Assembly: GCA_965649765.1 (NCBI GenBank) | Contig: OZ287758.1 | Location: 21,328,001-21,392,000, forward strand | Direction: 5' to 3' | Length of the DNA: 64,000 bases | DNA from: Bispira polyomma | Lineage: Eukaryota | Shown here: positions 15,224-48,978 of the stretch, in pieces | How positions within the stretch are numbered: position 1 is the first letter of the stretch | Layout of the letters: each line of letters opens with the position of its first letter | Position numbers and translations under genes: made by a program | Notes under the pieces: generated by a model | Told to the model about the DNA's origin: nothing | Database searches by the model: none | The model's input: only the letters and a program-made list of their open reading frames with translations

Positions 15224-15637
15224 ACTTTTTTACAAGTTCACCCAACTATCCCTCAAAACAATTTCAATCTTTACACCAAAGATCTACGGTGAAAATGCAT
15301 AGCACGACCCAATAGGGGTCTGCTACTTCAGTTCAACCAAAGGAAAATGTATTACTACTTTAAGCCCTAGGGGCAAATTCGACAACTGTAGCATGATTCA
15401 TCCAACCGTGAACTGGCCAGCCAATTAGGGGTCTTCCCTCCCAAATTCTGCATTCCTGTCCTAATATCTTCCATTTTGGAAAAGGATTCAGCAGTATACA
15501 CACGTACATTTTTTACAGCCAAGTTTATGAAGGCTCTGCTGAATCCAATTGCTTTTAGTATTTTAGTTTTTTATTCTATTGTTTGTTTTTAATATACTCT
15601 ACTTTTTATGTGTTTGTGATATATATATTGTGGTAAA

Positions 15638-16891: not shown

Positions 16892-16910
16892 GACATTGAC
16901 CAACTACCAG

Positions 16911-19900: not shown

Positions 19901-19939
19901 ATTCCACTCCAGTACTTTAACCTAGACTTAAATATATGA
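16911..19939 (+). CDS. pol: Reverse transcriptase/RNase H ORF2 of element 1 (frame open from 16892; first ATG 17012; start given is the predicted splice acceptor)
   Basis: KRRVILNLS, KLDVARAFRNL, FGWVHGS, YIDD; RNase H DACLTGLG...EMLN...CDN...ADLLSR. No methyltransferase domain seen. Confidence 0.92.
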
Positions 19940-20925: not shown

Positions 20926-22689
20926 TTTGGCTTGGGTGATTTTAAAATTACCTTGTATTTTAATAATTTATACCTATTTTACACCTACCTGTATATAGAT
21001 TTACTAACATGTACAGAATTTAAATAAATTCCTCAAACCATAGTTTCACTGTCTTCTGCTATACTTACCAGACTATCTTTCCACTACAACTTACCTTCTT
21101 TCCATTATACCAAGTAGAACTGCGGTCAAAATCAAGGTTAAAAAAACCAAAAAAAAACAACAGCCACCTGACTCCGCTATCTAACCAGGGACTATAAACA
21201 CAGTTTACCACAACTGTTTCTTAAATAAATTTAGCTCTGCAACTGTAAGATCAGCTTCTTAATTCAACATAAAGTTGACATAAAATAAAAGCAGTGATTT
21301 CAAGATACACTATATTGCAATAAAGTCCAAATTGTACATCTTATCGCATTAAATCTTGAACTGCAACTGTGACTCAACTGCTACCTAAATATATAAGTAC
21401 ATTAAACATATACTCTAGCATTCAATCGGACAATTTAAATCCAGGATATCAAAACCAAAATTGTAATACAAATTAAATCACATGGAATCACAAGCAGAAA
21501 AAGTACATGTAGAACATGCAAGCACCATTTAAGTAAATGCTGTGTCCAGCACAGTTACAATAAATACATCGTGACTAAATATTACATAAATATATCACTA
21601 ACTACCAAACTTGATGCACGTTTAAATAACATAAATTTAAATAACAAATTAAAGTGCTCACAAATGTCATGGGATATAATCTCCCGAAATGATATCTACT
21701 CACCGAATGATTTATAAGTAAACAAGGTGATTTAAGGAATAATTTACTCAGACACTATAAATATTACTTTACCGGTTGAGTACAAAATATTGTGCAAATA
21801 TTACTTTTCCTAAAAACAAATGCACTTAGTAATAGTCAACTTAATTACAGATCTGAAGCAGTCATATATATAGCAGTAATGCAGAGTCTAAATTACCATG
21901 CAGAGTTAATTATCACAATTATCATGCAAAAACAGTAAAAGAAATAAACCACTTGTCCAGCTCAGTCCACTTAACTACAACACTTATCAATAGTCAACAA
22001 AACTCAATCCAAATTCCAGCTTTAATCAAATCTAAATGTGGTGAAAGATTATCACTTCAAAAATTTTGCAACCCTGTTCGCTTTCGGCAGAATGTTCCAT
22101 TAAACAAACATGCCCAACTTTCCAACACAAACTAAACACACTTAACGGTAGACAATACAGTGCTGAAGGACATCACGATAACGGTCTCTTAGGCTGTAAA
22201 TAGTTACACAAAGGTATCTGGCGTGTCTATATATTGGTATGATTACAAAGACTGCTATTTTTTACCATGAAAATGTTTTTTTTTTGCATATGTACATACA
22301 ATAAATAAAATAAATAGATATATTGAACATACATAGATAATAAATAAAAATGTTAGAAATATTTATTTACTCACCTACATTTTGCAACCCCCATCACCTT
22401 TGGACCAAAAATTAATCAATTTTAGGTCAAACCTGAAAAAAAACGGGTCGAACGATCTGAGAAAAAAACGGGTCGAAACATCTGGATATCGTCACAATTG
22501 TATATTTGCTGCACCTCATTTTGTAAAAGTAGGCTATAATCTTTGACTAAGTCACTGATGCTAGTAAAGTTGTGGTTTTTGGAGATATCAAAAGCCTTGT
22601 TTAGGGGTTTTCCAGCCACTGTGATGAATTTTTTACACAGAAGCTTTTCATGCAAAATTGCAAGATAGTCTTTTGGTTTTACTAAAAAG

Positions 22690-24538: not shown

Positions 24539-27144
24539 ATGGGCTGGCAACTACCAATATTTCTTTCTTGCTTAGTAGTAGTTGCTGTGTATTTTGTATT
24601 GATGAGTCAATTAGTTATAGATGACACCAGATATCAACACACAGGTTAGTGTTTGCTATTTGCTAAATAATTGCCATTGTGCATTAACAATAAATAATTT
24701 TAAATGCATGCTGTTTCAGTGAAACATTATAGTAAATGGACTACACGAAGTGAACTAAGAATTACTTCAGAAAATGTTTTCTTTTTCTTTTGAGGCATTG
24801 ACGTCTGCTTAGAAAGTGTTTGTTTTAACAGTTACACATATTGGTCCCCTTAGCCATATTAGTACATGAGTTAACAGTTCAATCTATACATTCCACAGGA
24901 TAGTCATTGATTTTGTACAAAAATGGTAAAAATGTGCATTCCACAGTCCAGGTCATTGAATAAATGTTTATGCAAATAGGTTTTGACATAATCTTTTGTT
25001 TTAAATTCATGTTTGTACATTTTTTTAGAGTCATAATATTGGTTTTGATATAAGATTTTCAGACCATTCATTTTAATTAATTACCGTGTATTTATTCAAT
25101 ACTTTACTAATATCAATAACTTCACGATTTATGAATGTTTAACTGTAGGGTTGGTTAACCTATGTGTATACCAAGTTGGTTAAGTACACATGTATGGGCA
25201 AACTCGGATAGATAAAGATGATATATGTTACACAAGATCAAAAGTAGTTTTTCAAAGTAATTTATAAAATGGCAAATCCTCATGAGGATATCGTCCCATC
25301 CATCATTAAAGATACCACTTGGAATTCTGGCAATACACGATATAGTTCCCACATTTATTTTTTTATTAAAAAGAATAAAATCTGTTACCACTAGCGATTT
25401 TTTAAAAATTTTGTTCTCTATTGTACAGTAATATACCATATTTTGCGTTGCAAATTGTCATATATGTAGAAATAATGATTCGTAATATCTGGTGTCAAAA
25501 TTAAGCCAAATAATTGAACTTTGCTGTATAAAATATCTTCGATTAATAATTTAAAAACCCTTTTATAATTACTTATACGTTATTTTTATTTAAAATAAAT
25601 CTTTTAATAACATATCACCCCTTTTGTTATGTACATTGGGGCGTGGGCATGAGTTATTATTAGTTAAACTTTGCTGTTTTCTTAATGAGAATGCCATACC
25701 TATGTAATGTGTTTACTGGAGTATCTCTCAATGAGAATGCCATACCTCTGTAGTCTGTTTACTGCAGTAACTCCCAATGAGAATGTCATACCTGTGTAGT
25801 ATGTTTACTAAAGTATCTCTCAATGAGAATGTCATACCTGTGTAGTTTACCTCTGACTGAATGCAGTTATATAAAGTTCTATGTTCTCTCACAGAGATCC
25901 AGCCAGTGGTGACGACTAATAATACATTTGCTGATGCTGTTGCTGATGCTGCCACACAACAGCAGAAACAAAAGTGCAGCCAACATCACCATGTGTTCTA
26001 TCTGAAAGTATATAAAACGGGCAGTTCAACATTTACCAACATCTTAAACAGAAAAGCACTCACTCATAATCTCACCATTTGTAGAGTTGAAAAGGGTCCA
26101 TATTTGCACCCACATCTACTAAAAATGAACAGAACTGATTTTGAAGATCACATAAACGATGAGAAGTACAAATGTGATATGCACACCAGTCACACTAAGT
26201 ACAATTACAGCATGATTCACCAAGTAATGCACAAAGACACTATCCTTGTAGCAACATTGAGATATCCTTTTGACAACTTCAGATCAAGCTACTATTTTTT
26301 TCAGAGGAACAGACAGCATTTGAGAGTCAAAGCAACAGGAGATCCTATTGAGAAAATGCTTAAAGATAGTACGTATAGTGCTGTGTCTAAGAGATACCAG
26401 TTCGGAGGTAAATATGAGTTTTACAGGAATATAATGTACAAATATTTTAAATTTAATGACAGAAAGGCCGGAATGCACAAAGATTATCTGCAAGAAAGTT
26501 TTGCTCAAATTGCCAAACAGTTCAAGGCCACTATTCTGACTGATTGTTTTGATGAAAGTCTTATTCTTTTTAAAAGAATGGTGTGCTGGCAGACGAAAGA
26601 TATTGTATACATCACGCATAAAAATGCAACTTCTCTTAGATATATGAAACAAGCACAAGAATATGGTCCTTTATTGTTAAGACATAGGAATATATCATCA
26701 GTAGACTATGAATTATATTCCTATTTTCTTCAGGTTCATCAGCAACGTGTCACCGATGCTGGAATTTCTTTCGTTCGAGAAGTTAACGATTTTAAAAGAA
26801 TTAATGCAGATGTAAATAAATTCTGTTTGACCATTTTTGCAAAGTTTAATTATGGTACAGCTCAGCTGAAAATGTTAATGAAGAGAAAGATTGTTATTGG
26901 AGAGGGAGAGTTTACCAAACAGTTTCCTATAACAGGTGGAGATTGTTTGTTAATGTCGCTAGCAGGTGATAGGCTAAATGATGCCATCAAAGCCATGAAT
27001 TACCCTCTATCTTGTAATAGCAAAGCTTCTACGGTTCATGTGAATCAAGTGTTTTGTAATTCTAATGAGGATAACTTTATTTATAAGAATATCCCAATTC
27101 AAATGTTAAAGAGTATATTAAACGATCTTCGGTTACTATATTAA
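24539..27144 (+). CDS. Galactose-3-O-sulfotransferase-like type II membrane protein, 451 aa; join(24539-24644,25895-27144)
   Basis: Exon 1 encodes a signal-anchor (MGWQLPIFLSCLVVVAVYFVLMSQL) with a phase-1 GT/AG intron. 5'-PSB-like FYLKVYKTGSSTFTNIL, 3'-PB-like LRYPFDNFRSSYYF, plus FDESLILFKRMVCW and DYELY. Confidence 0.82.
25684..25845. repeat. 46-bp minisatellite, ~3.5 copies, in the sulfotransferase intron
   Basis: AATGAGAATGYCATACCT starts at 25684, 25730, 25776 and 25822. Confidence 0.85.
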
Positions 27145-29150: not shown

Positions 29151-29382
29151 TGCACAGCAGGACCCTTTAGGGGCCTGATACTTCAGTCCACTTACAAACC
29201 TTTTAACTTTCATCACAACCTTAATTTCGGTTATACCAACAATATATGTAGCTATTTACTGGGCTACTAGCCAATCACAGCCCACACACTTGTTGTTTAG
29301 GCTTCACTTTCCAAATCACCATTTTGAATCTACATTCAAGCTATAGAATTCAAAGCAACAACAAGTGAAAACTATTTTATGA
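29151..29382 (+). repeat. Split direct repeat A1
   Basis: Identical to 34775-35006. Contains AGCCAAT and CCATTTTG, both also present in the element 1 leader. Confidence 0.95.
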
Positions 29383-29468
29383 AATAAATGGATTGTATTT
29401 ATGTGATTTTATTATTTTAACTTGGGTTTTATGACACATTGTGTGCTACATATTGTGAATCAATCGAC

Positions 29469-30854
29469 ATGGGTCGTACTAAGAAAACGCCCACACACAG
29501 CTCCGTTAAAAAATCGACCAAGAAACCACTTACAGCAAGAAAGACAAAGGAAAGGCAAGTAGTTGATTCTCTCGTCTTGGACCTTGACGGTCAGTTATCA
29601 CAGGTAGTGGGCCCCTCTAGTACTGACAATTCTTTTCAACAGATACATAGCGATGCCTCGCCAATGATGCCGACTCGGGGGCCCCTACTTAGGCCGGGTT
29701 CCGACACAACCAGCAGCCAGAATTCTGACCAAATGCTTGCCATTCTCATGAGGCTTGAAGCCTCTAACGCCGATTTAGCTGGCCGTTTGCAGAAAGTAGA
29801 GCAACAGGCATCGACTAACGCATCCATGTTACCTACCTCATCCCTCCTCAGGACGGGTCACACACCGGCCATCGGGCAGATGGGAACCACAGCTTCCCTT
29901 AACGTCCACGGTACACCTGCATACAACCAACCTGCTACAGGCCACCACGGTCAGATCGCTGCCGGATCACTACCACAGACGGGTTACCCCCCTCAACAAC
30001 CAGCACAGGGTAACGCTGCGTTCGCGCTTCCCACTCAGTCAGGCAATATTGCATCAGCTTATATGCAGAACGCTACACCAGACATCCCCGTAGCAACACA
30101 CACGGGCTACGCGGGTCACGATTACCAACGGGACGGGATCGTGCCGAATCTAGATGCTTTAAGAACCTTACCGCACGTCCAGGCGGAAGTTACCAGACAG
30201 CTTGCTCAGTATTCAGCACTTGCACAGCGAGATATAACACAAGGTAAGGCATCTCTTAAGCATAAATCGGGTCGGTTCAATAACACAGACGTCACTTCCA
30301 TGGATCCCAGGCTAAGGTGGCCTAATGAAGGGTGGGTAGGGGGTTCTTCAAAGAAGAAGCCAACGTTCGACGAACTCACACTGCCGCAGTGGGCTGCAGG
30401 GCAGCTCGCTAACGCTTTATTAGTACCTAACCCTGCTGAAATGAAGGACATGGTAAGACAAATAATATCAGCACTCAGAGATGCTTCATCTCTGCCGTGG
30501 CACGTTGTCAGGACAGCCTGGGCTCTCAGTATGCACGAGGTGGAGGAGGGCCGGCTGTCCTGGCAGAACGACACCCAATGGTCACTGAATAGGCTCAGTG
30601 CTTCCCAGTTAGCCATGGTCAACAGTGCAAACGTAGGTACAAGCAACAGCAATTCTAGCAACGACTCTAAACTTATTTGTAAGTTATATAACAATGGTAA
30701 ATGTACCCACAAGTCAGATCACGACAAATACAAACACATCTGTTGGCATTGTAGCCGAACCCTGGGGAAGGACTCCAACCACCCCGAATTCAAGTGTTAC
30801 AGATCCAACAGTAAACAGCTGGACACTCAGGTAAACCAAGGAAAGCAAAGCTAG
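29469..30854 (+). CDS. gag: Gag-like ORF1 of element 2 (ATG 29469, MGRTKK...)
   Basis: Homologous to element 1 ORF1: MGRT start, coiled coil, KSGRFN.TD, LRDA.SLPW and the Cys/His tail. Confidence 0.88.
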   Translation: MGRTKKTPTHSSVKKSTKKPLTARKTKERQVVDSLVLDLDGQLSQVVGPSSTDNSFQQIHSDASPMMPTRGPLLRPGSDTTSSQNSDQMLAILMRLEASNADLAGRLQKVEQQASTNASMLPTSSLLRTGHTPAIGQMGTTASLNVHGTPAYNQPATGHHGQIAAGSLPQTGYPPQQPAQGNAAFALPTQSGNIASAYMQNATPDIPVATHTGYAGHDYQRDGIVPNLDALRTLPHVQAEVTRQLAQYSALAQRDITQGKASLKHKSGRFNNTDVTSMDPRLRWPNEGWVGGSSKKKPTFDELTLPQWAAGQLANALLVPNPAEMKDMVRQIISALRDASSLPWHVVRTAWALSMHEVEEGRLSWQNDTQWSLNRLSASQLAMVNSANVGTSNSNSSNDSKLICKLYNNGKCTHKSDHDKYKHICWHCSRTLGKDSNHPEFKCYRSNSKQLDTQVNQGKQS

Positions 30855-30873
30855 GTAATTCTTCAACAACCAG

Positions 30874-33593
30874 GAGAACGAACTATAGTTAAAGATAATT
30901 GCAAAGTAGAAGTAAGAGACGAGCATGATAGTAACATTAAAATTGTAAAAGGTGAGCTTAAATCTACTGGTGTTGATAATATACTGTGTTATGGTAATGA
31001 GAACAATGAACATATTAACGGAAATGAGAACATAATGCAAAACAATGTGAACAAAACGTACTCTGGTAATTCCACAAATGTTTCAAATAAGGGCATGGGG
31101 ACGGAGTACAACTGTATATCAGAGCATTATGACTTATTTTTGTATGACAGTGCACAATCCACATGCAGTGGAAGTAGAATGCAGTACTGCAACAGCGAGT
31201 TAGCTGGTTATGTTAATTCCCAATACTATGATGGTAATTCTAAAGAAAGAGAAAGTAAAAATCAGATAGAAGTAACAGTCACTGTCACCAATTGGCAACA
31301 TTTTTGTAAAAAATGGTCCGTTTGGGCTCCAATAGTATTCTTAAACTGTAGCTGTAATGAAATTGAAGGGTTTTACTACATATACCATCATAGTGGGGAC
31401 AATGAAATGAAATACATGCCTGTGTTTAATCTACCTCAAGGAGATCTGCAGGTCATACACAGATATGTCACAGCCATATATTATGATCTCACAGATAGAT
31501 GCAAAAAATTACTAAGTAAGGTTAATCAGTGTAATGCTGAGGATATTGAACAGGCAGCCAATGTTTTCGACAATTTCAGTAAAGATGAAAAGTGTTACAA
31601 ACAGTATGGCTGCGACTATTCTGAATATATAATGAATATTATTGATATTATGTGTGATGATAACTGGAAAGTAGATGACAATGCAAGCAGTGCAGACAAA
31701 TTCAATGTAAATACTGCAGCTGGACACGAGACTCCAAGGAGTGTGCCCTGCGATGAAATATACACATGTCCGATTCGCGATTTCTTCTTCAGAACTGACA
31801 GGGTCAATGCCGGCACCAGTAAGAACATTAAGGAAAATTGTCATTTCGCCCAATCAGGAAAATCAGTGGGATTTATTCCATTATCTTCCACAAAATTTCA
31901 CTTTATTGGTCCTGATCAGGAGCCAGTAAAAGTTGATTCAGTCGGTAAAATGGAAAAAATTGCTGCTATAGTTAGAGGCACGAATCTCCCTAATTATAGG
32001 CAGGCTAGAATTCCTTTAATTTCGGGATTACACCACACAGCGTGGGAGGAAATGCTTACTGACTATTCGGATCAGCTATTAATACAATATATAAAATTCG
32101 GGTTTCCTTTATCTCTCACAGAACCAGGGAAACTAAATAATTCAAAAACTGTCAACCATTACTCTGCTTTGCAATTTACGAAAGAAGTCGGGCAATATCT
32201 TGAGAAAGAAAAGTCAATGGGGGCGATGTTAGGCCCAGTTAAGCAAGTGAACTCACCACACTATCACTGCTCACCCCTTTTAACCAGACCCAAAGACACA
32301 GACAAACGTAGGGTCATTTTAAATCTTTCTTATCCACCGGGGCAGTCACTAAACGAGAATGTAGACAAAGCACTGTTCGATGGGGTCAAATTCATATTAA
32401 AATTTCCTACTATTGACGACATCATAGAGGCCATTCGGAATACTCATGATCCAGTGCTGTTCAAGATCGACGTGGCCCGAGCGTTCCGTAACTTAAGAGT
32501 TGATCCAGTTGACGCACTGAAACTAGGCATACAATTCGCTGAAGGGCAGTACATTGACTCTGCGGTCGCGTTCGGGTGGATACACGGAAGCGCGGCTTTT
32601 CAGCGTTGTTCTGATGCCATAGCAGCCTATATGTCGGAACGCGGCTTTAGAGTATTTTGCTACATCGATGACTACATATGTGTATCTACTAGAAGTAAGG
32701 CTGACACGGGTTTCCGTATTTTGAAAGATTTATTGCTTAGGCTAGGTTTCCCAATTAACGATGATAAGCTTACACCTCCCACAACTCGCCTTACATGCCT
32801 AGGCATAGACTTTGATATTACTGCCGGCACTATTAGCATACAGGAAGACAAACTTATAAGCATAACCAAAATGGTAAATGACACCTCTCAAAAATTGCAC
32901 ATTTCACGTACTCAGTTTCAATCTTTATTAGGAAAATTATTATATGTTCACAAGTGCGTGAAACCTGCCAGAACTTTCATAAATAGATTACTTCAAGGTT
33001 TCAGAAGTGATCACAATGCCAAAAAAATCAAAATTTCTTCGGAAATGCGCCATGACATCGACTGGTTTCAAAAATTCTTACCTCAATATAACGGGATCTC
33101 ATACATTAACCATAGGGACATTTCCCATATGGACGAGTTACACCTGGACGCCTGCCTATCAGGTTTAGGAGGTGTCTGGAACAGAGAAGTGTACTCCACA
33201 CCATATTATAATGTTTATCAAAGAGAGCTTACCATAGTGCATATAGAGATGCTGAACATTGTCCTGGCTTTAAAAATTTGGGGTGAAAAATGGGCTCACA
33301 GTAGACTGATAATTCACTGTGACAACATGGCCGTCGTACTGGTTGTTGAAAGTCAGAAGACGAAAGACGAATTTCTAGCATTATGCTTAAGGAACATTTG
33401 GCTACTTATAGCCACATATGACATTAATATTAGCATTAAGCACATTCCAGGCAAGGAAAACATAATAGCAGATGCCCTTTCTAGAATTTATTGCAAAACT
33501 CCTCCCAGCAGGGACATGTTATATAATTTATACAACAATTATGTTTGGAATCCAGTACTCATACAACATTTTGACCTAAATTTTTTAATATAA
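30874..33593 (+). CDS. pol: Reverse transcriptase/RNase H ORF2 of element 2 (frame open from 30855; first ATG 31035; start given is the predicted splice acceptor)
   Basis: KIDVARAFRNL, YIDD, DACLSGLG, CDN and ADALSR. Confidence 0.92.
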
Positions 33594-33599
33594 TTACAG

Positions 33600-34576
33600 G
33601 TGCTACTGCCATTACTCAGAAACTCATCACTTCAGCATGTGGAAGGATTGACACGGCACTTAGACCAAAGACTTCTTCTGCTTACGAAAATCAATTTAAG
33701 ACTTTCCTGGCTTTTAATGTATTTGCAGGCATTGCAAATACTTCGGTTCATTCAGTACTGGCCTTTTTGGAATATTTGACACAAAATAACATTTCCCCTG
33801 CTGCGGTGTCAAACTACCTTTCTGCTCTAAAATTCATGGCTAGAAAGTTCAATTGGGATTTAGCTCCATTCAATCACAATTCTGTTGCATTATTCGTCAG
33901 AAGTATGACAATTAATTCACTATTTCGTCCCAGACACAAGGGATTGTTTGATATCGCACAGCTAGCACAGATTTCCATAGCATGTTCTATTCTAGATGAC
34001 CCAATATTATACAGATCCATATTTATGGTGGCCTATTTTGCTTTTTTGAGATTATCCAATATTGCCCCTCACTCAAGGGCCACATTTGATAGAACTAGGC
34101 ATTTTCTCAGACAGGACTTAATTTTTGGGCATCCTGGGGCTCACATCATCCTAAAATGGGCAAAGAATTTACAAAATAGGACAGATACACATATAATACA
34201 AATTCCAAAACTACAAAATAAGACTATTTGTCCAGTATTGGCATTACAAACCTTACTAGCTTCCAGGCCCCTTCCTCCTGCTGCACCACTTTTTGCAGTA
34301 GCTGGTACACCACATCACACCATAGTACAAACACATGTAAGGACAGCTCTGGAAAAAGTCTTGACACACATTGGAATACAATATTCTTCACATGGATTCC
34401 ATACTTTCAGACGTTCTGGAGCTTCATTTGCATTTAATCATAATGTATCCCTACAGAATATAATGGCCCACGGGCTTTGGAGATCATCTTCAGTTTGGGC
34501 TTACCTCCAAAAAACCTCCCAGGCTGCATCAGTCGTGCCTCATACCTTTGCCTCTTCTATTCCTTCTTCTCTGTAG
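33600..34576 (+). CDS. Tyrosine recombinase ORF3 of element 2 (no N-terminal ATG; frame open from 33575)
   Basis: GATAITQKLITSACGRIDTALRPKT aligns with the N-terminus of element 1 YR. FLRLSN, HTFRRSGAS, HGLWRS and VWAY are present. Confidence 0.9.
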
Positions 34577-34582
34577 TTGGGC

Positions 34583-34774
34583 TTGGGGCTTAAAATTTTC
34601 TGAATTTTAACCATTTTTACACTTGTTTTTCTGTACATATACCATTAACATGTATATATAAAATAAAGCTCAAACTGAACCGGTTTATTTACTTACACAA
34701 AACATCACACGTGGCTTAAAATCCATTACTTAACATCTTGAACCCAACTTACACCTTGTAACTTAAGTGGACTG
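34583..34774 (+). repeat. Split direct repeat B1
   Basis: Identical to 35765-35956; contains AATAAA; abuts A2. Confidence 0.95.
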
Positions 34775-35006
34775 TGCACAGCAGGACCCTTTAGGGGCCT
34801 GATACTTCAGTCCACTTACAAACCTTTTAACTTTCATCACAACCTTAATTTCGGTTATACCAACAATATATGTAGCTATTTACTGGGCTACTAGCCAATC
34901 ACAGCCCACACACTTGTTGTTTAGGCTTCACTTTCCAAATCACCATTTTGAATCTACATTCAAGCTATAGAATTCAAAGCAACAACAAGTGAAAACTATT
35001 TTATGA
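34775..35006 (+). repeat. Split direct repeat A2
   Basis: Identical to A1. Confidence 0.95.
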
Positions 35007-35174
35007 CCCACCTCCTCCCCTATGACCACAGCCTAGTGCTTGACGAATAATCAGCGACTTAAGCTTTATGTTTTCTTTAATATCATGTCACGACAAAGTG
35101 AATAGTCCACGTGGAAATACGGGCAAGTCACTACTATATTGGAATTGTAATTCGGTCGTTTCCAACAGGGAACT

Positions 35175-35358
35175 CGGCAACAGAGCGGACGGCGAAGGTT
35201 CGAGCCGGTGGCCGTGTGAAGGGGGGATCCTGTCTCTTATGCCTCCACTGGGTCATATAATGCATCGCCAGGAGGGGGTATGACAGGCAGGATTTCCCCT
35301 TTGCTAGGTGGTTGGTGCCCTAGGCCATCGGTTCTAACGTTAGCCTGAAGCGCATGCC
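35175..35358 (+). ncRNA. Candidate structured RNA motif in the A2-B2 spacer
   Basis: 12-bp stem 35202-35213/35323-35334 and 17-bp stem 35219-35235/35285-35301, with G-U pairs valid only on +. A homologous covarying motif lies at 54972-55132 (minus). Confidence 0.65.
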
Positions 35359-35764
35359 AATGGATGAAATTGAGAAAATTACTTGTGGTATCTTAGTAAA
35401 TAATGTTAAATACAAGCATATAAACTGAGAGTGGTTGTAAATATTAACCAATAATGAGAGAGTTTCTAACAATTAGCTATGTTGAACTTCAGTAATGATA
35501 TAAATGTGGTATATGGACTGTTTATGGCCACTGATGATGTAATTTATGTGTCGATTTATGCAAGATTTATTGTTTTATGTGTAACTTTTAGTATCTACAT
35601 ATTTCACTATATGGCTTGAAAGGTAACAAAAATGATACCAGTTTTAAGGTGTACTCTTACGTATATTGTATAATTATTTAATGGCTAGTCCGCATATTTT
35701 TATGTATTTATTATTGGCTAGTCCTTTACGACTTAAGTCTCTGTTAGTCGTTAGTCCTCCTTGA

Positions 35765-35956
35765 TTGGGGCTTAAAATTTTCTGAATTTTAACCATTTTT
35801 ACACTTGTTTTTCTGTACATATACCATTAACATGTATATATAAAATAAAGCTCAAACTGAACCGGTTTATTTACTTACACAAAACATCACACGTGGCTTA
35901 AAATCCATTACTTAACATCTTGAACCCAACTTACACCTTGTAACTTAAGTGGACTG
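35765..35956 (+). repeat. Split direct repeat B2
   Basis: Identical to B1. Confidence 0.95.
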
Positions 35957-37267
35957 GTTACTGTAGTCAAATGTATGATAACTAAGTAAAATGAATTTCA
36001 TTAAACCTATCATTTGTTGTTACTTGCGTATTACAGTTATGGATTTTGTTTTATAAATGTTATTTAGTTCACTGTTAATTTTTAAAATACATCTGAATAT
36101 CCTGAACCATCATTACATGTATATTCTGTTAAGGTTCCATGATACTATATATATATATATATATAAGACAGGTGACATAAAACCTGATCAGTTAGCTGAT
36201 GATGTTTACATATATATATCAGTTTGCCTACAATAAGACAAAATTGACCAAGGACTTTTCGTGACACAGAGTTTATCCTATATTGGCAGAATAGATTTTT
36301 AAAGGGTGCGGAGCTCTGGTAATCAGACATTGAGCATGTGGTCACTTACTACAAGGTCATAAAGTTATCACTTATCCCACGACTTCTATGTGTGAGAAAA
36401 ATTATTTTTGGTAAATTATCAGTTTGAAAAACATTGTGAAGTGGAACCTCATTTTCTCAGTAAAAGCTTTATTCAAGGTACACCGTGTAAAGGTTTAATA
36501 TCAGGTAAGATAAATAACATGATATTAACCCTTTCGATCCCTAAGTTGTCGGCAAGCAGTCAACAGCATTTGTTACTCCCAGAACCTATGTCTGTCGTCA
36601 ATCAGTCGAAATCCCACAAATATTTTTTTAAATTTTTACTCATTTTCTCACAATAGAAAATTATTTGTACAGTAGAATCGTTTCCTTAAAAAATTATGTA
36701 TAAGGCTGTCATTAAATTCCGGAAGTAGTCAGTGGTGTGTGTTAGTCTCCCCAGATTTCTGTAACCTATTATAAATTGCTTTAGTTTCCGGCGATATTTT
36801 TCTCTTGGGGTTAAAAGTGAAAAACACTTTAGAAATACATTATAAAAGTATGAAATATAAAAACATCACAATACACTGTATATTTTGGCTTATCAAACAC
36901 AATCACAAACTATATGGACAACAAATACAAATTGTATATAGTTTAAGTTATAACAAGACTGCTTTTAAGGGTGCAGAGCTTCGGTAATTAGTCATTTGTA
37001 CATGTGGTCATCATGTAGCTGTAGAGTTATCACTTGATCACATGACTTCTTTGTGCTAGATTTTTTATTGTGGGTAAGTTATCAGTTTGACAAACCTTGT
37101 GCTCTGGAATTGACTATGTGTCCCACTGTATGATAAGATATAAGGTGTATGTACAGAAGGTGTATTTAAGTCAAGTCATACAACACTATCATCACTACTC
37201 ACAAAAGGTTGTATTATACAAGAGGAAACTATTTATAAAATCAGTAAATTCACAATAAATAGCCAAC

Positions 37268-37854
37268 ATGCTGTTGCTTTTTGTAGTTTTAAGTTTGTTT
37301 GTTTCTCCAAGTCAACAACACGGTCGTCTGGTCAATCCACCCAGTCGGTCAACTGCATGGAGGTATGGGTTTGATACCCCTCCAAACTATACAGACAATG
37401 AACTCAACTGTGGTGGAATGAATGTAAGCTGCTATTCTTTTCAGCGAATGTAAATACAATGACATTGTATGCAGTATATTTTTTGCAATAAAATTTGTCA
37501 AAGTACTAGGTACATGATACTCATATATTTATAAAAAAAAATGTTTTATTGCCTGTATAGAAAATATGTAAGATATATCTCTATTTGTATTAATTTTGCT
37601 TCATTTTAAGTAGGAAAATTTGAAACTTTTCACTAGAATAAAGCACATATTTTTATTTAAATAAGTCTATCGTTACAATGCTCCTGCAGAAACTGTTTCA
37701 TCATTTGGTCAAGTTAGAGGGTTGGCCAAGGTGTGTATGTAGGAATGTTGATAGTACACTTGCTTAAGTTTGGGGGTTTGCAGAACAACAATATTAAACA
37801 ACTACTCATGCTGATTTTTTAACCAATAAAATACGCATCAAATATATTCTTAAG

Positions 37855-37901
<47 letters not shown>

Positions 37902-40900
37902 CAGCACCAATGGGGTCAGAATGATGGTAAATGTGGGGAGTGTGGTGATGCCTGGGAGATACCCCTGGGTGAAAGACCCAACCAGGTGGGAGGGATATAT
38001 GCCACAGGGACTATAGTAGCTGAGTACATAGAAGCAGAGGTAAGATATGGTCACAAGTTTTGAAAAAAGAACAAGCTGCAGAATGTCAAACCAATCTACA
38101 AGAGGTAATATATAGTAACCAGATAATAGGAATATTCAATCCGAGTGACACATATTTGTCCACTTTACAGCATTCATATAAATACAAGAGGTATGTAAAA
38201 AAAATATTTATGGCCAGCAGATGATAAAAAAAAGTTAGCGGTCTCTATTCCAGCAGTTTGTAATTGTAATTGAGATTGTAATTAGACCTTTATAGTGCTT
38301 AATCTCCCCTTAACGTAGGAGACTCTCAGGCGCAACAGCGAATGGACAAATGGTTAAGGAGTTGGTTTGCTTAATGTAGGGTCTCCAGTTGAAATGCTAA
38401 CATGGTTACACATGCATCGAGGGATAAGATATGAACCATGTGAATGATTTGTAATGAAGAATACATCAATATAATTTTGTAAAAACTAGAACACCTAAAA
38501 ACAAAAGAGTTGTAATTCACATCTATGGTTTTATGACTATGTACCAATGGGGATTTATTGAAGATTGTGAATAATTATGGTAACATTTGAGATTGATATG
38601 ATTGTGTAGCCAGTGTTTCTGTCTATAGTTAACATATTACATTGTGTGACTACTAAATACCAGGTTTGCAACATCTGATTATTTTGTGTTTTTTTGGTAA
38701 AAGGGGAATAAAATAAATGAAAAAAGAGTTCCTCAGTTTCTACATACATTTTGCCAAAATTGTCCTCAAATGTTACACTAGATATTGTGGAATGCGATCC
38801 AACCACAATACCCAAACTTATACCAAATGATTGAGAGCAGTGGGATATAGTAAATGTAATAAAATTCCTGGATTTTTGTAATCCACTGTGATTGAATTTT
38901 TGTGACTGATCAAACTTAGATGTACCTGTTCTAAACCGATACACCCCAAAAATCTAAACACCTACTTGAGTGGCTCATAATTCAATCCAAAACATACCAT
39001 CTGATAAGACCATTACATTAAATATGGTAAAAAGATTCAGCAAAATTTGTTTGACAAGACAATATTACTCTCAACCTTGACAAAGCACAAGATGTTATAA
39101 AATTTTGTCCTTACAATTTTGACTGTCAAAAGTATTTCCTTTAATTTACTGACATCAAAGACAATTAAGAACAAAATTGAATGTGAATTAGAAGTGTTTA
39201 TTATGTATAGTACTTTAGTGATAAGAACAGTTATATTAGTATCATATAAATGAAACAAATAAATATAATATGACATTTATAGTTAATTGATGTTGTCGTG
39301 GAGATCACAGCCATGCACCAGGGCTGGTATGAGTTCCGATTATGTGCAGTTAATGACCCTACTGTGTAAGTATGTATATACCAGCCATTAATACAGCTAC
39401 ACTCTGTTAATAGAGGGCTTTTATATTCTTTAGTTTCATTTTCCATGATCCCATTTCTGTCAAATGCACATCGATGTCAAATCATATAATTACTGCTTAA
39501 GGATATCTTTAAACTGGATATAAGTAATGTTGTTTTACTTAGATTTGAAAGAAAAATTGCATTTGTATTACCTCTTTCTCAGTAATAATAAAATGTAAAT
39601 TAGAGATCATCTTGAATACTATAAAATGAAAACTTCAATTTTTTAATTTAGAATCACAATAATATGTCCCTCAAACTCAGTCACAAGAGTAATAAGTCAG
39701 AGCCTGTTGTATTTTGTATTGTAGTCCAGTGACTTGGGAATGCCTTAACCAGACACTTCTTCAGTATGCTGACGGCTCCACAAGGTATTACATTCAGGAA
39801 GAACTCACTGGCTTGTATGAATTCCAACTGTGGCTTCCCTATGGAATCACATGTTCTCAGTGTGTGTTACAGTGGATGTGGCATTGTGGTTAGTATCCAA
39901 AATAAATGGGTGAACATTAATCGTAACTGGCATTTATTGGAACAGTAATATTGTAAACTCTACAGGTGAAGCTTAAACAAAACAAAAGGAAAAAAAATAC
40001 CACTTACATAATTTTTCCCTAAATCGTTGATGGCAGACGTCAATTTAAAAGTAATTTAGATCTATTTTTTAAAAAAATCTTCATGGATAAAATACATGCT
40101 TTTGTTATAATGAAATAATATTTAACTATCTATAACTTTATTGATTGGCTATTACTATGTTATTCCTCAGGAAACAGATATGATACGTGCGACGATGGGA
40201 CAGGTGATGTTGGGTGTGGACCACAAGAACAGTTCTATGGCTGTGCTGACATCACAATACACCCGGGTGATGGAGAACCACCAGCTAGCACGACTCCCAG
40301 GGTATGGATATAGAGTATGAGAAATCAAAAGGGCCAATTAATACTTCATTAATACTAGTTAATAATAAATAAATTGTTGTCGATATACCTAATGCTGTAA
40401 AAGCTGATGCATTATACAAAACCAGAAAGTTCCATTACGTAGTGGTAAAGTAACCTAACAGTTGTGTGCAATATTTATAATATATTTTATTGTTCAGTAT
40501 CATATACCATTATGCAGAACATTATTAATATTAACATGCCATCTTACACTTCATGGAAACTGTTTCGTTGAATTAGTTTAATGTACTTTCGATTGTATCT
40601 AAATATTACTACACTCTGGTGACTAAATACGTTTGTTGTAGACCACCCAATCTACTACCGAGTCCACTGCATTTACTGGCAGTACCACTACCCAGACCAC
40701 AACTACCACTACCACACCACCACCTGACGGGGAGTAAGTATACTCAATACACTACAGAACAAGTGATACTTTTGTATTAAACAGTGTATATCATTCAAGC
40801 TGTGATTAGTTGTATTACAATGATAATACAAGTATACAGATTATGTAAATAGAACAAAATCAGTGAGTCATATTAGTGATAACAATGTTGACAAACATCA

Positions 40901-41376
40901 TGCCAATTAAGCATTTCAATTGAAAACTCTGTTTTACCCACAGCTGGATGTTTGACGGTATACTTTACTATCACATACACCATGACTTAGTGGTTGTAAA
41001 CACACTGGTTTCTTAATGCAGGTGTTTGTCATAGTTTGGTGGGTACAATATGATATTGACTCCTGTATAGTAGTAGTTTCCCTCACTTACCTTAACCATA
41101 TGACATAGATATTGAAATTTACTTCAATCAACCCTGTCTAGTGTTGGATTAATTGGGTGTCAGTGTAATTTTAAGCCACATGGAGTTATAGTAGCATTCG
41201 AATCTTGTATATGTGCTTAGCTAAATGCTGTATCCTAGATTTACAAACCTATTTTATATTACAGCTGTGTCTGGATAGGAGGTGAAGGAAATGGAACAGA
41301 CGATTGGTGTCAAGTGAATTGCTATTACAACCCTCCCTACTGCCCAGAGGACTTGTGTCAATGTACAGGCCAATAG
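37268..41376 (+). CDS. AA15-type LPMO paralog 2, 290 aa; join(37268-37423,37905-38039,39283-39365,39725-39888,40171-40301,40642-40733,41265-41376)
   Basis: HGRLVNPPSRSTAWRYG, ITAMHQGWYEFRLC, GCGPQEQFYGCADI, Thr linker, and CVWIGGEGNGTDDWCQVNCYYNPPYCPEDLCQC. Same intron positions and phases as paralog 1. Confidence 0.92.
37859..37900. repeat. (TA)n microsatellite
   Basis: About 20 TA units (one CA interruption) directly before the exon-2 acceptor of LPMO2. Confidence 0.9.
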
Positions 41377-42972
41377 GGTGGGGTCATTTATGTCTTCAAG
41401 GATGCAGAAACCAGTGGCATAAGTTATAACTGTAGAACATTCAGCAAGATGATAAATGTGATATAGCTTAACCATTGGTTATGACAGGTAACACTGTCAG
41501 AAATATGTAATTAATAATAAGTATTGAAAGATAGAATAAAATATTTTGGAACATGGTGTTTTATTGCCACTCTTTTCTGCACTATATAACTTTAATCAAT
41601 AACAATAGAGATATTATAAGATATAGTCTGTACGAATTGTGCAACTAAGAACTAGAACTATGTTGAACAAGTGTATTCATTCATTTTAAAACCAATAATG
41701 CAAACGTCCTGTATAATTAGTACATAAGAAAAATGTATCTCAAAAGTACCGACTGAATCATTATCTTTTGTGACCCTATTTTTCATATCTATTATTTTAA
41801 GGTAAAAGGTGTTTTATTTTACAAAAGCAGTTTATAAATAAAACAAATGAATTGTATATACTTCTATGCGAGTTATTCTATATTTATAAGGTCACAGGAT
41901 GACAGAATATGTTTCAATTTAACTGGAATCATAACGCAAAATATATATGTAAAAGTACATTAAATGGTTTTAGTTGAACATCTTAACACCCTTAAAAGTA
42001 TAGGTTTTGGAGAAGTTAAAATGCAAAATCTGGAATTTCAATAAACTTTACCAGCTCCTTTCCCCCATTTATTCATTTTATAGCTTAAGTCAAACAACTG
42101 CAGTAGTCCAATTTCTAAATACACAAAATCAAGATAGCTGCAGTTTTGTATCAACGACTCATTCTGTATTACCTGGCTTATTGTGTTTTGACTTATGTTG
42201 TATGAAGGACTTGTTTTGTACCAAAATTGACTTATTCTGTATCACAAAAGTTGATCTATTTTTGGTCATCACTTGACTTAAACTTATCAAAATTGGCGCA
42301 AAACTCTTCTCACTCATGTCCGTATCACTAGAGGACATGCATAATTTAACACAAAATTTAGTTATACAAGAGTATATTAACCGGAAACAACTTAAAATGT
42401 AATCAGGAAATGGTCATCTCTTCAGCATAATAGTTAGCCATGTGCTGCAACAGTTTGGATCAATGGCTCGTTTTGTATTACCAGATTTATTGTGTTTCAG
42501 TTTCAGACTTATTTTCTAGCAATAGCTCATTTTGTAGCAAAACTGACAGATTCTGTATCAACTGATCGGGTCATTTGGTAATATCACTTGACTGGAAATA
42601 ATTCATAGTTTAAAATCTGACTAGTTAGCTGATTCAGCTTATTATGATATAGAGTATCTTTTAGATTGCCAGAATCAATTTCCATGGATATTTTAAGGAA
42701 ACAGAGCTCAGTTAATTCGACACCGTTCACCTGATCATGCAGTAACTATCACATACTACATGAATTTTAAGTGTAGCAAAAGTTATTGTGGGTAAGGTAT
42801 GTAGAGAATTTTTTATAGTATACAATATAAAAAACTTTAATGTGTGATAAGATAAGGAAGTGTATATATGTATACATCATGTGTAATTAACTGAATTGGT
42901 TAAACATTAGAAGTTGCGTCATACAGGTGGAAACCCTTTTGTAAAGATTGTTTAAGTGTAAACTAGTCGAAC

Positions 42973-45900
42973 ATGCTGTTGCTTTTTGTAGTTTTGAGTT
43001 TGTTTGTTTCTCCAAGTCTACAACATGGTCGCCTGGTCAATCCACCCAGTCGGTCAACTGCTTGGAGGTATGGCTTTGATACTCCTCCCAACTATACGGA
43101 TCATGAGCTCAACTGTGGTGGAATGAATGTAAGCTGCTATTCTTTTCAGGGAATGTAAATACAATGACATTGTATGCAGTCTATTTTTTGCAATAAATTT
43201 TGTCAAAGTACTAGGTACATGTTACTCATATATTTATAAAAAATGTTTTATTGCCTGTATAGAAAATATGTAAGATACATCTCTATTGATATTAATTTTA
43301 CTTCATTTTAAGTAAGAAAATTTGAGCAAAACTTTCCACTAGAATACAGCACATATTTTTATTTAAGGGTTTAGTAACGTAAACACATAAACTGATTGCC
43401 AATACCCACGTTATATGTGTTTGAGTTTCTCTGAAACTGCACAACTTTTATTTTGTTGCCTGTAAGTTGTGATTTGCAGTGCTGTGAATACAATTAAATT
43501 GTATGCAATTTCCTTATTGCATTAAATGCATACTGTACTTGGATATATAATCCCCTATAGAATTTATATGAAATATATATTTGTACTTTTATTGACTATA
43601 TTGAAGTAAAACATTGAAGTACCACATTTCTGCTGAGAATACAGCACACATTTGAGTGAGTCAATCTTTACAATGCTCCTGTTCAAGCTAGTTTACCGCT
43701 TATCATAAAATTAACAGTACAGTAGACTTGCTGACGGCCATTAGTTTCCAGAACAGAAATATTGATCAACTATCCCGTTCTAATTTATACCACCAATAAA
43801 ATGCCCATTTTGAGAAAAAGTAAATATATTGATAGTGACGGTAAACACAAATTAAATGCAAATTCACATATTAAAGTACTTTATTTATATAACAGCACCA
43901 ATGGGGTCAGAATGATGGTAAATGTGGGGAGTGTGGTGATGCCTGGGACATACCTCTAGGTGAAAGACCCAACCAGGTGGGAGGGCTGTATGCCACAGGG
44001 ACTATAGTAGCTGAGTACACAGAGGCAGAGGTAAGATATAATCATAGTACACATTATAAAATGATGTTGCAGTTGCAAATGCCTTGGTTGCAAGTTGACT
44101 TGACAATTTCAATTTACTACTATAAAGTATTGAACAAGGGCAAATAAGTTACAGAAAATTCAAAATAATTTCCAAAATATCTGGGTCTAGATTATTTAAG
44201 GTTTCAGCCCATCCTAAATAGAATAGTTTCCATGCAATCCAAAAATTACAGTCTTTCGAAAAAAAAATATTCTAAACCTATTTTGTATCAACTTGTTTTT
44301 TCTGCCATGACATATGTACTACTCTAATTGATTGGAAATGCACCACAGGGGATGCTTCAACATCGATTGGGGTTTAATAAAAACAGGATGAGTGTGTTCT
44401 GCCATTGCTTTGTGTTTAGAGAGTTGTTGTGCTTATCAATGGTCCCCTGATTTAACTCCAAGAAATGTCACATGTGCCTTTCAGGGATAAATATCATCCT
44501 TGGATAAGGTGTTAATACACAATTACCATCTGTCCAATGGGACTATATTGCATGACTCCCCATTTTTGAGAAACCAGTACCTGAGAGGATTCATTGACAT
44601 AAAACCTAAAAAAAAAAATAATGTCATCTGTTCACTGATAGGGAACAAAATATTAGGGTCATAAGTAAGTTGTCATAAGGTTTTTATTATTATTTTACCA
44701 TTGTTCTCGTAAACTTAGCAAACAAAATATCTAAAAAAATAATGATATTTGTAGTTAATTGATGTCATCATAGAGATCACAGCCATGCATCAGGGCTGGT
44801 ATGAGTTCCGATTGTGTGCAGTTAATGACCGTACTGTGTAAGTATGTGTATACAAGCTATTAACACAGTTTCACTGTGTTAATAGAGGACTGTCAACAGT
44901 TGCGCCTCCTTTTTTCAAGAAAGTGATATACTTTGTTTGGACTTTACATAGTCCTCACTTAAAACACCAATAGAATATATTTTTTTTAATGTCTACAAAT
45001 AAAATAATCGCATCTTAAATTTAGGCTTTAAATTTCTAAATAACTGCTTCTTGTGCATATACTGACTTCATGCCATTCATTCACATAACTTTGTCCCTCA
45101 AACTGAGTCACAAGACCAAGAAGTCAAATCACGTTCTCTTTTATATCGTAGTCCAGTGACTTGGGAATGCCTTAACCAGACACTTCTGCAGTATGCTGAC
45201 GGCTCCACAAGGTATTACATTCAGGGGGAACTCACTGGCTTCTATGAATTCCAGCTGTGGCTTCCCTATGGAACCACCTGTTCTCAGTGTGTGTTACAGT
45301 GGATGTGGCATTGTGGTTAGTATCAATGTAAACCTTATATAAAGTTCATAAAGTGGAATTTATATGCTACATCATTGTTTTATTATCCAAACATTCAGCT
45401 GATGACATCATTAATGCTCCCTAAAAGTTTTTTTCCATTATATTGATATTTCCAACATATTGCTTTCCTACTATTTGTTTATGTGAAGATGTAACAGTAA
45501 ACCAGCTGGTCTAAATAGTATGTGCATCATTCTAAATCAATTTAAGCATTTTAATAATGTCATTCATACTAAGAACAGTATTTCCCTTTGGTTTAGCACA
45601 AAAACGGATGATTCTCATATTACAAGCTCATGTTCTTTATATTGGTTAATTCAAAAGTATGGTAAAATCTACACAAATGTGTTAAAATTAATGCCAGGTC
45701 ATTAAACAGGTCATCAAATAACTTAATATTTCAAACCATAGAATTAGTCCACTATATGAGCCGTAGAAACACTTTCATTATATCTGTGGTTCATCTTGGG
45801 TTATTCTTTAACCAACCCTTTCTTAGCAGCAGAAATTCAACCATATCTGTAGCTGATATTTCCCCAACTATAAACAGATACGTTAGATTTATCCTTGATT

Positions 45901-47262
45901 AATGTACGCAGGATTATGAGAGATGACAGCTAGTAAAATTCATCGGCCAAGTTTTTTTTAGCTGTATTTACTTAAAACATGCCATATATGCACTATTCTC
46001 AATTAGCAAAGAAAATCAAAACAATATCAAATAATATACATTAATCCATGTGGTCTTTTGTGGCCTAGTGATTTGTAAGTTTGTCTGGTGATCAGAAGGT
46101 CCCGGTCTGGTTCCCTGTTTCAACAATAATAATAACTGTAAAGTCGGTTGAGACCACATTAGAGGTGATATCAGACTACACACATTTCACAGCTGTACCT
46201 ATAGACTACAATGTTCTTGTTCAGGTAACAGATATGGTATATGTGATGATGGGGTAAATGACTTAGGGTGTGGACCACAAGAACAGTTCTACGGCTGTGC
46301 TGACATCACAATACACCCAGGAGATGGGGAACCACCTGCTAGCACGACTCCCAGGGTAATGGAAAGCTAATGTTTCATTATTATTAGTTATAAACTTCTC
46401 AATATTTACAAAAGTGATAAAGTTTATGTGTACTGTCAATCTCTTCAATGTTGTAAATATCCTTGAATTTAATAATTTATATATGCTATTTTTGACCTTG
46501 TAACTAATTATCACTGCATACTGGTAACTAAATACCTTTGTTGTAGACTACCCTGCCTACTACCGAGTCCACTGCATTTACTGGCAGTACCACTACCCAG
46601 ACCACAACCACTACTACCACACCACCAGCTGGTGGGGAGTAAGTACCCACAATACACTACATAGCTAGACTAAGTGCCACATTGTATTAGACAGTGTATA
46701 TCATTTAAATTGTAATTATGGTGTTATTAAAAGTATATGAAAGTAACAGGTTTGTCAGCGAGAGTAACATCAGTAATTCATTTTACTGATAACAATGTTG
46801 ACAAATATAATTCCAAATGCGTAATCTAAAATGAAATCTATGTTTGACCCAACATCATAGTGATTGGAGGTATATACTTTACTATCACATACATCATAAC
46901 TTAGTGGTTCTAAACCCACTGGTTTGTTTATGCAGGTGTTTAGTGGGTACAATACTATATTGACTTTAACCATATGACCTAAGATATTGAAATTTACATT
47001 GAACTTCAATAAGCTCAAAGCAACCCTGCCTACCGTTAGATTAAGCATGTGTCAGGTTAATTGTCTCCATGTGTCACATGGAGTTATAGTACCATTCAAA
47101 TCCTGTATATCTGCTGTATTCTAGATTTACAGACCTATTTTATGTTACAGTTGTGTCTGGATAGGAGGTGAAGGGAATGGAACAGACGAATGGTGTGAAG
47201 TAAATTGTTATAATGATCCTTCTTACTGCCCAGAGGACTTGTGTCAATGTACAGTAGAGTGA
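42973..47262 (+). CDS. AA15-type LPMO paralog 3, 290 aa; join(42973-43128,43896-44030,44755-44837,45152-45315,46225-46355,46547-46638,47151-47262)
   Basis: Close duplicate of paralog 2 with identical exon lengths. His brace intact; no stops. Confidence 0.92.
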
Positions 47263-48978
47263 TGTCATGGCTGTTATTACATCTTCAAGTATACATAAAA
47301 TAGTGAAATTTGTTTAGACAATAAAATATGATAAATGTAATATAGCACAAACATTGCCATATTAACAAGACTGTATCCATTGTTATGTATTTAATATTTC
47401 AAGTTTGTAGTATGTGAAGCAACACTGTCACAAATATAGTTAATATTAGGCTATGAAAGATTGAATAAAATATCTGGTAATATTGTGTCTTTTTTGGCCA
47501 CTCGTGTCTGCATTATACTAATTTAGTTAGTTCAACTATCCATATAAATACAGTTTTTTTGTATATTAACTATACAAATGATGTAACTGCAAAACTACAA
47601 ATATGTCGCATCAAAAAGAGTTCAAATGCTATTGTTTCCTGCAGACAATAAATAAAAAATGGTCTGTTCTAATTTTACATGAACCAATGTGAAATACTGA
47701 CTGAGAAAAATTGGCATTGTGTCTGTGACCTATTTTCGTATCTTTTCGTCTTGGGCCTGTTCTGATAACGGTTTGCATCATTAACTGTGTTTATCTGGAG
47801 GTAAAACATGTATTTTCCCACAGACACAGCTTAGAGATAATATTATTGCAGCGTATCTGGTTCTATTTAAGTTTATCTTTATATGATAACATATATAACA
47901 CATATATTCATAATTGTAACGATCAAGGGAGGACAGAAAATATATTTAGTTCACTGTAATGAAAAGTACAAATAGATATCAAATATTAATATTAAAATTT
48001 ATGCCTCTGTAAGGTTTAACAGCCAGTCTCAGAAGTAGTATTGTTATAACAGTTAGGATACACTCAATGGAGTTTAAATAGACATTGTTACCCCTTCAGC
48101 CCAATATGTGAATGTATTGCTGTAGGATAACTAATACTCTTGCCTAATGTTGAGAGGCCAGCAGTCGCCTAGTGGTTAGAAGCGCCTGCTTCACAATAAC
48201 TGACGTCTCACCAATGTGACCAACCTTCCTTACAAGATAGCTTATGGACCACGCGATTGGTTAACCGATTCTGTTGCTGTGCTTAAGAAGATGCCTAGCA
48301 ACAATAAAGCACATTCAAAATACATGATAATAATAATAGTTAAATACCTTTGCATTTAATGTGCAACCATATAATATGTACCGGTACAAATTTCTAAATT
48401 ACATTTCATTAATGCATAATTTTATATAGAATATATTAGCAAAGAGGAATTTTTTTCTTAAGTCAAAGGAAATCCCTAACAACTCCCTAATTTGGTCAAT
48501 ATACTTAAACCATTATCCATGATATTCATTATGCTAATTAGAAGTAGTAGGCTTTGTCACTATTGTATCATATTCAAATTAATACTCAATGCATTTATCT
48601 GGTGTTCAAAGTGCCAATTAACATTTTCTTGATTGCCTAACTATTTCCAGCCAACACCATTAACTGTCATTCCCTAACTGAAGCAACACATCAATTATTA
48701 ACTTTCCCAAGTTTCTTAGCCTGCAACAGAGGATAAGAGCCAATGTCAAAGAACACCACCATTTTTAAGGGTCATCCCAGGCACTTTAACTTGCATAGGT
48801 TTCCCATTATTGCTTGCCTTTTTAACACACAACTCTGTTTTTGTGCTCTGATAACATTAATTGATAAGATATAAACCTATATATTTTATAACTAAGTTAT
48901 CTCATTCGACCAAGTTGGAAATCTCATAGCACATCGCCACTAACATAATTAGACAGAAGGGAGTTTTGGAGAATTAAG

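Follow-up and report, generated by a model that had tools for sequence, protein, structure and literature searches.

Recombination on folded single-stranded DNA is, to our knowledge, so far known from integrons and from Xer-dependent phages. The integron attC site is recombined as a folded strand, in which an outer box, an unpaired spacer of 5–6 bases and an inner box follow one another, and the product is resolved by replication (sections on attC in PMC5027507, PMC2727003 and PMC4792948). CTX attP(+) consists of two tandem cores that are active only on the folded plus strand via XerC/XerD, and the integrated duplex is inert (cited section of PMC4246890). According to the cited section of PMC9345347, the SE elements of Vibrio, which are strand-biased circularising integrative elements, use a tyrosine recombinase (YR) and move one specific strand, as we propose below for our elements; unlike these, they are bacterial DNA elements without reverse transcriptase (RT), and their circle is copied out of the donor. 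DIRS-1 of Dictyostelium is itself a YR retroelement with single-stranded cDNA and self-pairing ends. It differs by its inverted repeats and ICR, by the antisense polarity of its single-stranded cDNA, and by a published double-stranded-circle model with a shared trinucleotide (cited sections of PMC7192593), whereas no shared core seems to be needed here. Ngaro elements, of the order DIRS, are defined by split direct repeats in the arrangement A1-ORFs-B1-A2-B2 and by the absence of a methyltransferase (definitions in PMC4157794 and PMC9210276). For Ngaro and PAT elements, the sections used of PMC7192593, PMC8547959, PMC9210276, PMC6681497, PMC4157794 and PMC3783388 do not mention a folded junction, name a strand that is cut or report the exchange of a single strand; this set of papers does not extend to the first Ngaro descriptions by Goodwin and Poulter.

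The 64,000-nt stretch of DNA analysed here (the window) holds three pieces of Ngaro-type YR retrotransposons (Table 1). Elements 1 and 2 each comprise ORF1, an RT/RNase H frame and a tyrosine recombinase, with RT/RNase H and YR on one strand and the YR last. The repeats show the Ngaro layout, i.e., split direct repeats A1 ... B1-A2-B2 past the YR, with a spacer C added. The methyltransferase domain, which would separate them from Ngaro and place them with PAT/DIRS1, is absent, as Pfam gave only RVT_1 and RVT_3 in both ORF2s. We hence assign the window elements to the known class of Ngaro-type retrotransposons on the basis of layout and domains. They share with Ngaro a gag-like ORF, RT/RNase H, YR, internal repeats downstream of the YR and the lack of a methyltransferase; they differ in that a unique region C of 376–1256 nt separates A2 from B2, and in having no SGNH ORF. 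Element 1 likely owes its layout to recombination between B1 and B2, and the third piece likely arose from recombination between A1 and A2.

Table 1. Features of the three retrotransposon pieces and of the B1-A2 junction (positions in the window)
Feature	Position	Strand	Remarks
Element 1, A-ORF1-RT/RH-YR-B	15296–21122	+	without A2-C-B2
Element 2, repeat A1	29151–29382	+	CCAAT at A position 121
Element 2, ORF1	29421–30854	+	gag-like by position; TAG end in frame with ORF2
Element 2, ORF2	30855–33593	+	reverse transcriptase (YIDD) and RNase H-like domain
Element 2, tyrosine recombinase	33575–34576	+	R..HxxR..H..Y intact; Cre-like predicted fold
Element 2, repeat B1	34583–34774	+	AATAAA at 34662
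Internal B1-A2 junction, predicted hairpin (attachment site)	34764–34818	+	
Arm 1 = B end	34764–34774	+	elements stop after its CTG; putative cut between 34774 and 34775
7-nt spacer, cut side = first A bases	34775–34781	+	consensus fold: 5 unpaired, 2 paired
Inner arm 2, variable loop, inner arm 3	34782–34801	+	arm 2 CA, one likely extrahelical base
6-nt spacer, uncut side	34802–34807	+	
Arm 4	34808–34818	+	complementary to arm 1
Element 2, repeat A2	34775–35006	+	
Element 2, region C, unique, non-coding	35007–35764	+	begins with conserved CCCACC..CCCC tract
Element 2, repeat B2	35765–35956	+	right end of the element
Third piece, A-C-B without ORFs	54666–55462	-	A start 55462, B end 54666

The YR retains its catalytic motifs, and its structure was modelled with a pLDDT of 81. 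Structural comparison of this model gave Cre/Tre as best folds, with IntI (2a3v) at rank 34. The integron-integrase profile TIGR02249 was not matched by the YR (14 bits, cutoff 265), and the extra helix of the IntI I2 insertion was not visible in it, as judged from predicted secondary structure alone. A PDB sequence search came back empty. ORF1 of element 2 had no Pfam match; it ends, as in element 1, with a TAG beyond which the RT frame runs on in frame (16889–16894 in element 1, 30852–30857 in element 2). Neither RT frame has a nearby ATG, the first Met being residue 41 and 61, respectively, and the TAG between ORF1 and RT frame is a candidate site of stop-codon readthrough. An Rfam search with element 2, region C included, gave nothing at gathering score. 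The GC-rich core of region C (35100–35350), likewise without Rfam match, is possibly a structured RNA driven by the CCAAT of A2. Apart from the retrotransposons, the window contains a single-exon galactose-3-O-sulfotransferase-like ORF between elements 1 and 2 (25861–27144), a family of related host genes in tandem, with Thr-rich tails (about 2600–7400 and 37200–55900; repeat families D2–D14), and a Gly-rich repeat ORF near 61800–62200.

An earlier note on this DNA had proposed that the end of B pairs with A across the B-A junction. The pairings that it named are present in all three pieces. In element 2, 34764–34774 is the exact reverse complement of 34808–34818 (identical 11-mer at 29184–29194), with a gap of 33 nt; in element 1, 21114–21122 pairs with 15329–15337 at 8/9 positions, again with a gap of 33 nt when counted from the A start at 15296; and in the third piece, on the minus strand, the arms match with one bulge and a gap of 33. 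A true B-A junction exists in the window only in element 2. Element 1 and the third piece pair between separated ends, and true junctions for their families were found elsewhere in the genome (L111–L114, L155). A lone 11-bp pair is within what chance can give: 20 block-shuffled versions of the window contained 0–5 such pairs each, 19 in total, compared to one in the window itself. Because a single pair of this kind is not rare, the weight of the complementarity rests on its position and on its conservation across families.

Conservation was assessed within the 1.03-Gb assembly (75 contigs). Eighty stretches were taken by YR similarity alone, hand-chosen among the matches listed (roughly 120 in each of three listings); 48 of them have B1-A2-C-B2, 15 only A-ORFs-B, 6 are altered and 11 unclear. 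With element 2, this gave 52 real B-A junctions in 16 families (85% single linkage). The B/A boundary drawn from repeat divergence brackets a CTG in 44 of the 45 copies in which both repeats could be mapped. Outer pairs 1–6, formed by the six bases at the B end and six bases 33 or 34 nt into A, are Watson-Crick in 16/16 families, all of which come from one genome and one YR clade (57–100% identity), with few independent changes behind the statistics. Pair 5 is G-C in eight families and A-T in eight, and pair 6 is G-C in 14 and C-G in two. When B ends were shuffled among families, which ignores kinship, 16/16 was reached in 0/20000 shuffles (mean 6.5). In the named structure 90% of cells are paired, compared to 18–41% in slid controls. 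Its covariation score of 0.239, versus 0.099 after shuffling, was reached by 0/500 shuffles, kinship again being ignored, and RNAalifold returned the same two stems flanking a 5 x 4 internal loop. On a tree of 31 YR copies (YRs of this genome and three relatives), we read no fewer than two double changes for pair 5, a further two independent ones for pair 6, and no broken state. Inner spacer pair 7:1 shows three compensated and three broken changes on this tree, and the deeper inner stem is weak, with one pair broken in 8/16 families. The 15 A-ORFs-B copies, end read against end, each keep at least six pairs. The comparison of termini from many families, suggested earlier as a check, hence finds the complementarity maintained in all 16 families, with compensatory changes between them. 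Searches in other species yielded one locus in metagenome contigs, which ends before any junction, and viral contigs held no related locus.

The junction is built from four arms. Arm 1 closes B with ACTG, and arm 2 starts with CA 7 nt further on, often followed by an unpaired base. Arm 3 (GG..CTG) is a direct near-repeat of arm 1, and 6 nt past it arm 4 starts with CAGT. The spacers of 7 and 6 nt are invariant, and the loop absorbs length change, giving a gap of 33 or 34 nt between the outer arms. ACTG/CAGT forms the core in 16/16 families, and an extrahelical base is preferred in 9/16, on the cut arm. By prediction and covariation, the arrangement of outer stem, unpaired spacer and inner stem is thus present. 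A GACCC-N4/5-GGG(G/T)C hairpin between the arms, put forward earlier as conserved, does occur in the three window pieces but does not generalise, being complete in only 4/16 families; the conserved part of the inner stem is AG-CA/TG-CT. Past the YR of L110, B is followed by 6 nt of A and then by foreign sequence (its left end was not found), and past that of L105 by about 20 nt of A and then foreign sequence.

Insertion ends define the crossover. Left ends were located without their first 7 nt, and all 99 distinct 5' ends start with T followed by G or A, i.e., at the base after CTG; among the 75 left ends with a reference, 69 match it at 7/7 positions. None of the 144 3' flanks carries the 7-nt spacer, and two match it at 6/7. 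Seven of 61 paired insertions have an alignable empty paralogue. At the six empty sites with >90% identity no base was gained or lost, some of them lacking any base shared with CTG/TG, and at the seventh (that of the window's third piece, about 80% identity) the insertion lies one base off. What looked like a target duplication at L157 was a host tandem repeat. Three contig runs hold the insertion, and no empty site was found there. Ends and empty sites together bear out the B-A junction as the recombining site and make it the exact recombination point. No element ends at the second core, arm 3-6-arm 4, which is intact in 261 cases and locally altered in 2. If both strands were exchanged across a spacer that does not match, both products would be expected. 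As only the sense-strand product is present, we infer from these footprints that only one strand is exchanged.

The target is loosely defined, and mainly on its left. Position −2 is T in 77/99 and never C, −4 is A in 56/99, −5 is G in 38/99 and −6 is A in 51/99, so that the left side loosely matches arm 1 read in the same direction (A-G-A-V-T-N), with position −1 free. To the right of the cut, nothing beyond a weak excess of G at +2 (39/144, 23.8 expected) is seen. Two candidate features were discarded. A TG core common to junction and target amounts to at most a weak bias (G at −1 in 28/99; T at +1 in 54/144, 48.7 expected). A right-arm A at target +8, seen in 52/98 of the first flanks and then set as a prediction, occurred in 18/46 new flanks (p = 0.29), and a 6-bp target spacer was dropped because this A failed to replicate.

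YRs cut at the 3' edge of the bound arm, giving a 3'-phosphotyrosine and a 5'-OH. On the sense strand, the cut of the fold would be CTG/T and thus coincide with the observed end, and the bound arm would lie to the left, on the side of the target preference; both points argue for a sense-strand cut. We therefore favour, with a probability of somewhat under 0.6, a reading of these sequences in which the B-A junction is the exact joining point with nested arms, would fold on the sense strand and would be cut once by the element's YR, after the CTG of B. The folded single-strand substrate postulated in the earlier note thus remains the best reading; its identification with first-strand cDNA does not, since ends and left-sided target preference fit the sense strand.

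Mechanistically, arm 1 would pair with arm 4 and arm 2 with arm 3, bringing two inverted CTG arms around a mostly unpaired spacer of 7/6 nt. The YR might become linked by a 3'-phosphotyrosine both to the B end and to a double-stranded target that loosely resembles arm 1 on its left side, whereupon the two 5'-OH ends could swap without spacer homology. Host replication or repair would then resolve the junction and only the sense-strand product would be fixed. The most speculative step concerns the intermediate, which could be a gapped circle whose first-strand cDNA reaches no further than the transcribed part, between a late start in A and a poly(A) site in the middle of B. Only the new B2-A1 junction would be single-stranded on the sense strand, and the internal B1-A2 junction and all chromosomal copies would be double-stranded and inert. 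Such a circle, with the sense strand alone across the new junction, would explain strand, asymmetry and inert chromosomal copies. The wider analogy, of a retrotransposon on the integron/CTX route that combines a Cre-like YR, a sense hairpin folded only in the gapped intermediate, a one-strand swap at almost any site and inert integrated junctions, has in our estimate slightly less than an even chance of being correct.

In a double-stranded circle of the full element the same junction would occur twice, so that half the insertions would be expected to be permuted. In family 2 there were no permuted copies, and 30/30 A+ORF starts have host DNA upstream. B-like left flanks numbered 0 among the 75 ends with reference, and 2/99 end in CTG. 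The C motif follows in 116/120 junction matches (B+A queries, overlapping loci counted twice), compared to 0/70 left A copies; the other four junction matches look broken by eye, judged without alignment to ORF1. Region C opens with CCCACC..CCCC..ACCACAG exactly at the A2 end (35007–35030; 14 families), never after A1, TAGTT(G/T)GG precedes B1, and B starts at TGGG. These motifs resemble priming or jump sites, which would fix the repeat borders. Copies at L004/L005, L006/L007, L182/L183, L189/L190 and L201 carry an additional A-C-B unit in tandem, which may be the reciprocal product of the frequent deletion to A-ORFs-B or stem from an extra copying round. In L141, the A repeat together with some 750 nt of host flank on its left is duplicated within the 3' repeats (1097–2085 and 7217–8204, element orientation).

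Alternatively, the pairing might serve reverse transcription or end regeneration, as an RNA or DNA panhandle that brings the B end into line with the A start, like the ICR of DIRS-1, with the YR acting on a double-stranded, nicked or linear end. We regard this as unlikely. The fold is equally good for RNA and DNA, with z-scores that are alike for both and for both strands (median −3.8 plus, −3.0 minus), and because of this covariation is compatible with DNA and RNA folding alike. Two ends held together would also explain the use of only one junction copy, and DIRS-1 ends are restored through self-pairing (as set out in the cited section of PMC7192593). The inverted CTG arms, the fixed 7/6 spacers, the repetition of arm 1 by arm 3 and the likeness of the target to arm 1, however, would all be left unexplained by a panhandle. 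Furthermore, CCAAT lies at A109–128 and AATAAA 81–136 nt before the B end in 14/14 families with complete repeats. These positions suggest transcript ends without both arms, and the transcript, hence also the first-strand cDNA, probably lacks the whole fold.

The four arms could also be protein half-sites on double-stranded DNA, the first tandem core being cut and the second accessory, with one strand exchanged as in VGJ phage, which does so from double-stranded DNA (cited section of PMC4246890). The symmetry of the site would then stem from recognition by the protein. It had been argued earlier that the 33-nt gap is too long for a YR spacer. This argument fails, as the duplex reads as two ordinary-looking tandem cores, arm 1-7 bp-arm 2 and arm 3-6 bp-arm 4. 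Since the inner arm sits 7 bp from the cut, spacing alone leaves double-stranded DNA possible, and the Cre-like YR would fit as well. The pattern of changes, in contrast, makes duplex half-sites improbable. At positions 4–6, arms 1/4 are complementary in 48/48 cells, compared to 28/48 for arms 3/4 and 17–20/48 for arms 1/2; changes are thus coupled between the nested arms 1 and 4, which favours folding. Target preference does not track them: G at target −5 occurs in 18/44 cases for arms with G and in 13/31 for arms with A, which argues against a shifted protein specificity as cause of the arm changes. Moreover, spacer bases pair with each other, and a symmetric circle should yield permuted insertions, none of which were seen.

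Very unlikely, in our view, is that antisense first-strand cDNA is the folded substrate. The minus strand folds nearly as well; the plus strand is more stable in 13/16 families, by 0.86 kcal/mol on average. Wobble pairs are ambiguous (spacer pair 2:6 is G-T on plus in 15/16; pair 5:3 is A-C in 6 and G-T in 3), and neither wobble pairs nor energies picked a strand, so both were given up as a strand criterion. The antisense single-stranded cDNA that DIRS-1 accumulates (cited section of PMC7192593) counts against the sense-strand reading, and on the minus strand the bulged base would sit on the 3' arm, as in attC (cited section of PMC5027507). Canonical cuts on a folded minus strand, however, should give ends at A7/8 or A33/34; none were seen, all 99 ends lying at A1, and the spacer is missing from all 144 right ends. 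The target preference, too, lies left of the crossover, and this side would bear the phosphotyrosine only under a sense cut, given the general YR chemistry. Finally, that the complementarity is a functionless, inherited accident of related termini is hardly credible and already largely refuted by the changes on the YR tree, as independent double changes and six unbroken outer pairs, in families whose YRs are 57–100% alike and whose neighbouring sequence has diverged, outweigh the kinship of all families and the occurrence of an 11-bp pair at such distance about once per shuffled window.

The sense-strand fold resembles attC in its outer box, an unpaired spacer of similar length, inner box, frequent extrahelical base and variable loop, and the putative one-strand exchange with a double-stranded partner, resolved by replication, would resemble that of IntI. 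It differs in several respects. The RYYYAAC/GTTRRRY core is absent and ACTG/CAGT stands instead; the bulge is on the cut arm, whereas that of attC is on the opposite arm; there is no conserved +1 microhomology, the target is nearly free, and the arms are conserved in sequence. In addition, the YR is Cre-like and not an IntI, and the substrate would be made by reverse transcription. With CTX attP the junction shares two recombinase cores in tandem, but CTX uses the host XerCD, one site (dif) and an attP of about 150 nt, in contrast to an own YR, a 55-nt site and dispersed targets here. The junction thus belongs to neither attC nor CTX attP.

The elements are of a known class and their mechanism would be a new variation on known ones; our analysis specifies a 55-nt substrate, its strand and its cut. 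It addresses two puzzles, i.e., that an enzyme with a loose target leaves many chromosomal B-A junctions alone, and that permuted copies are missing although the proposed circle would contain the same junction twice. If true, in split-repeat YR retroelements this route would take the place of the symmetric double-stranded-circle model, and a single-strand integrase for animal cells, scarless and nearly free of sequence requirements, could come within view. Folded single-strand recombination would then have arisen also in eukaryotic retroelements, with a Cre-like enzyme.
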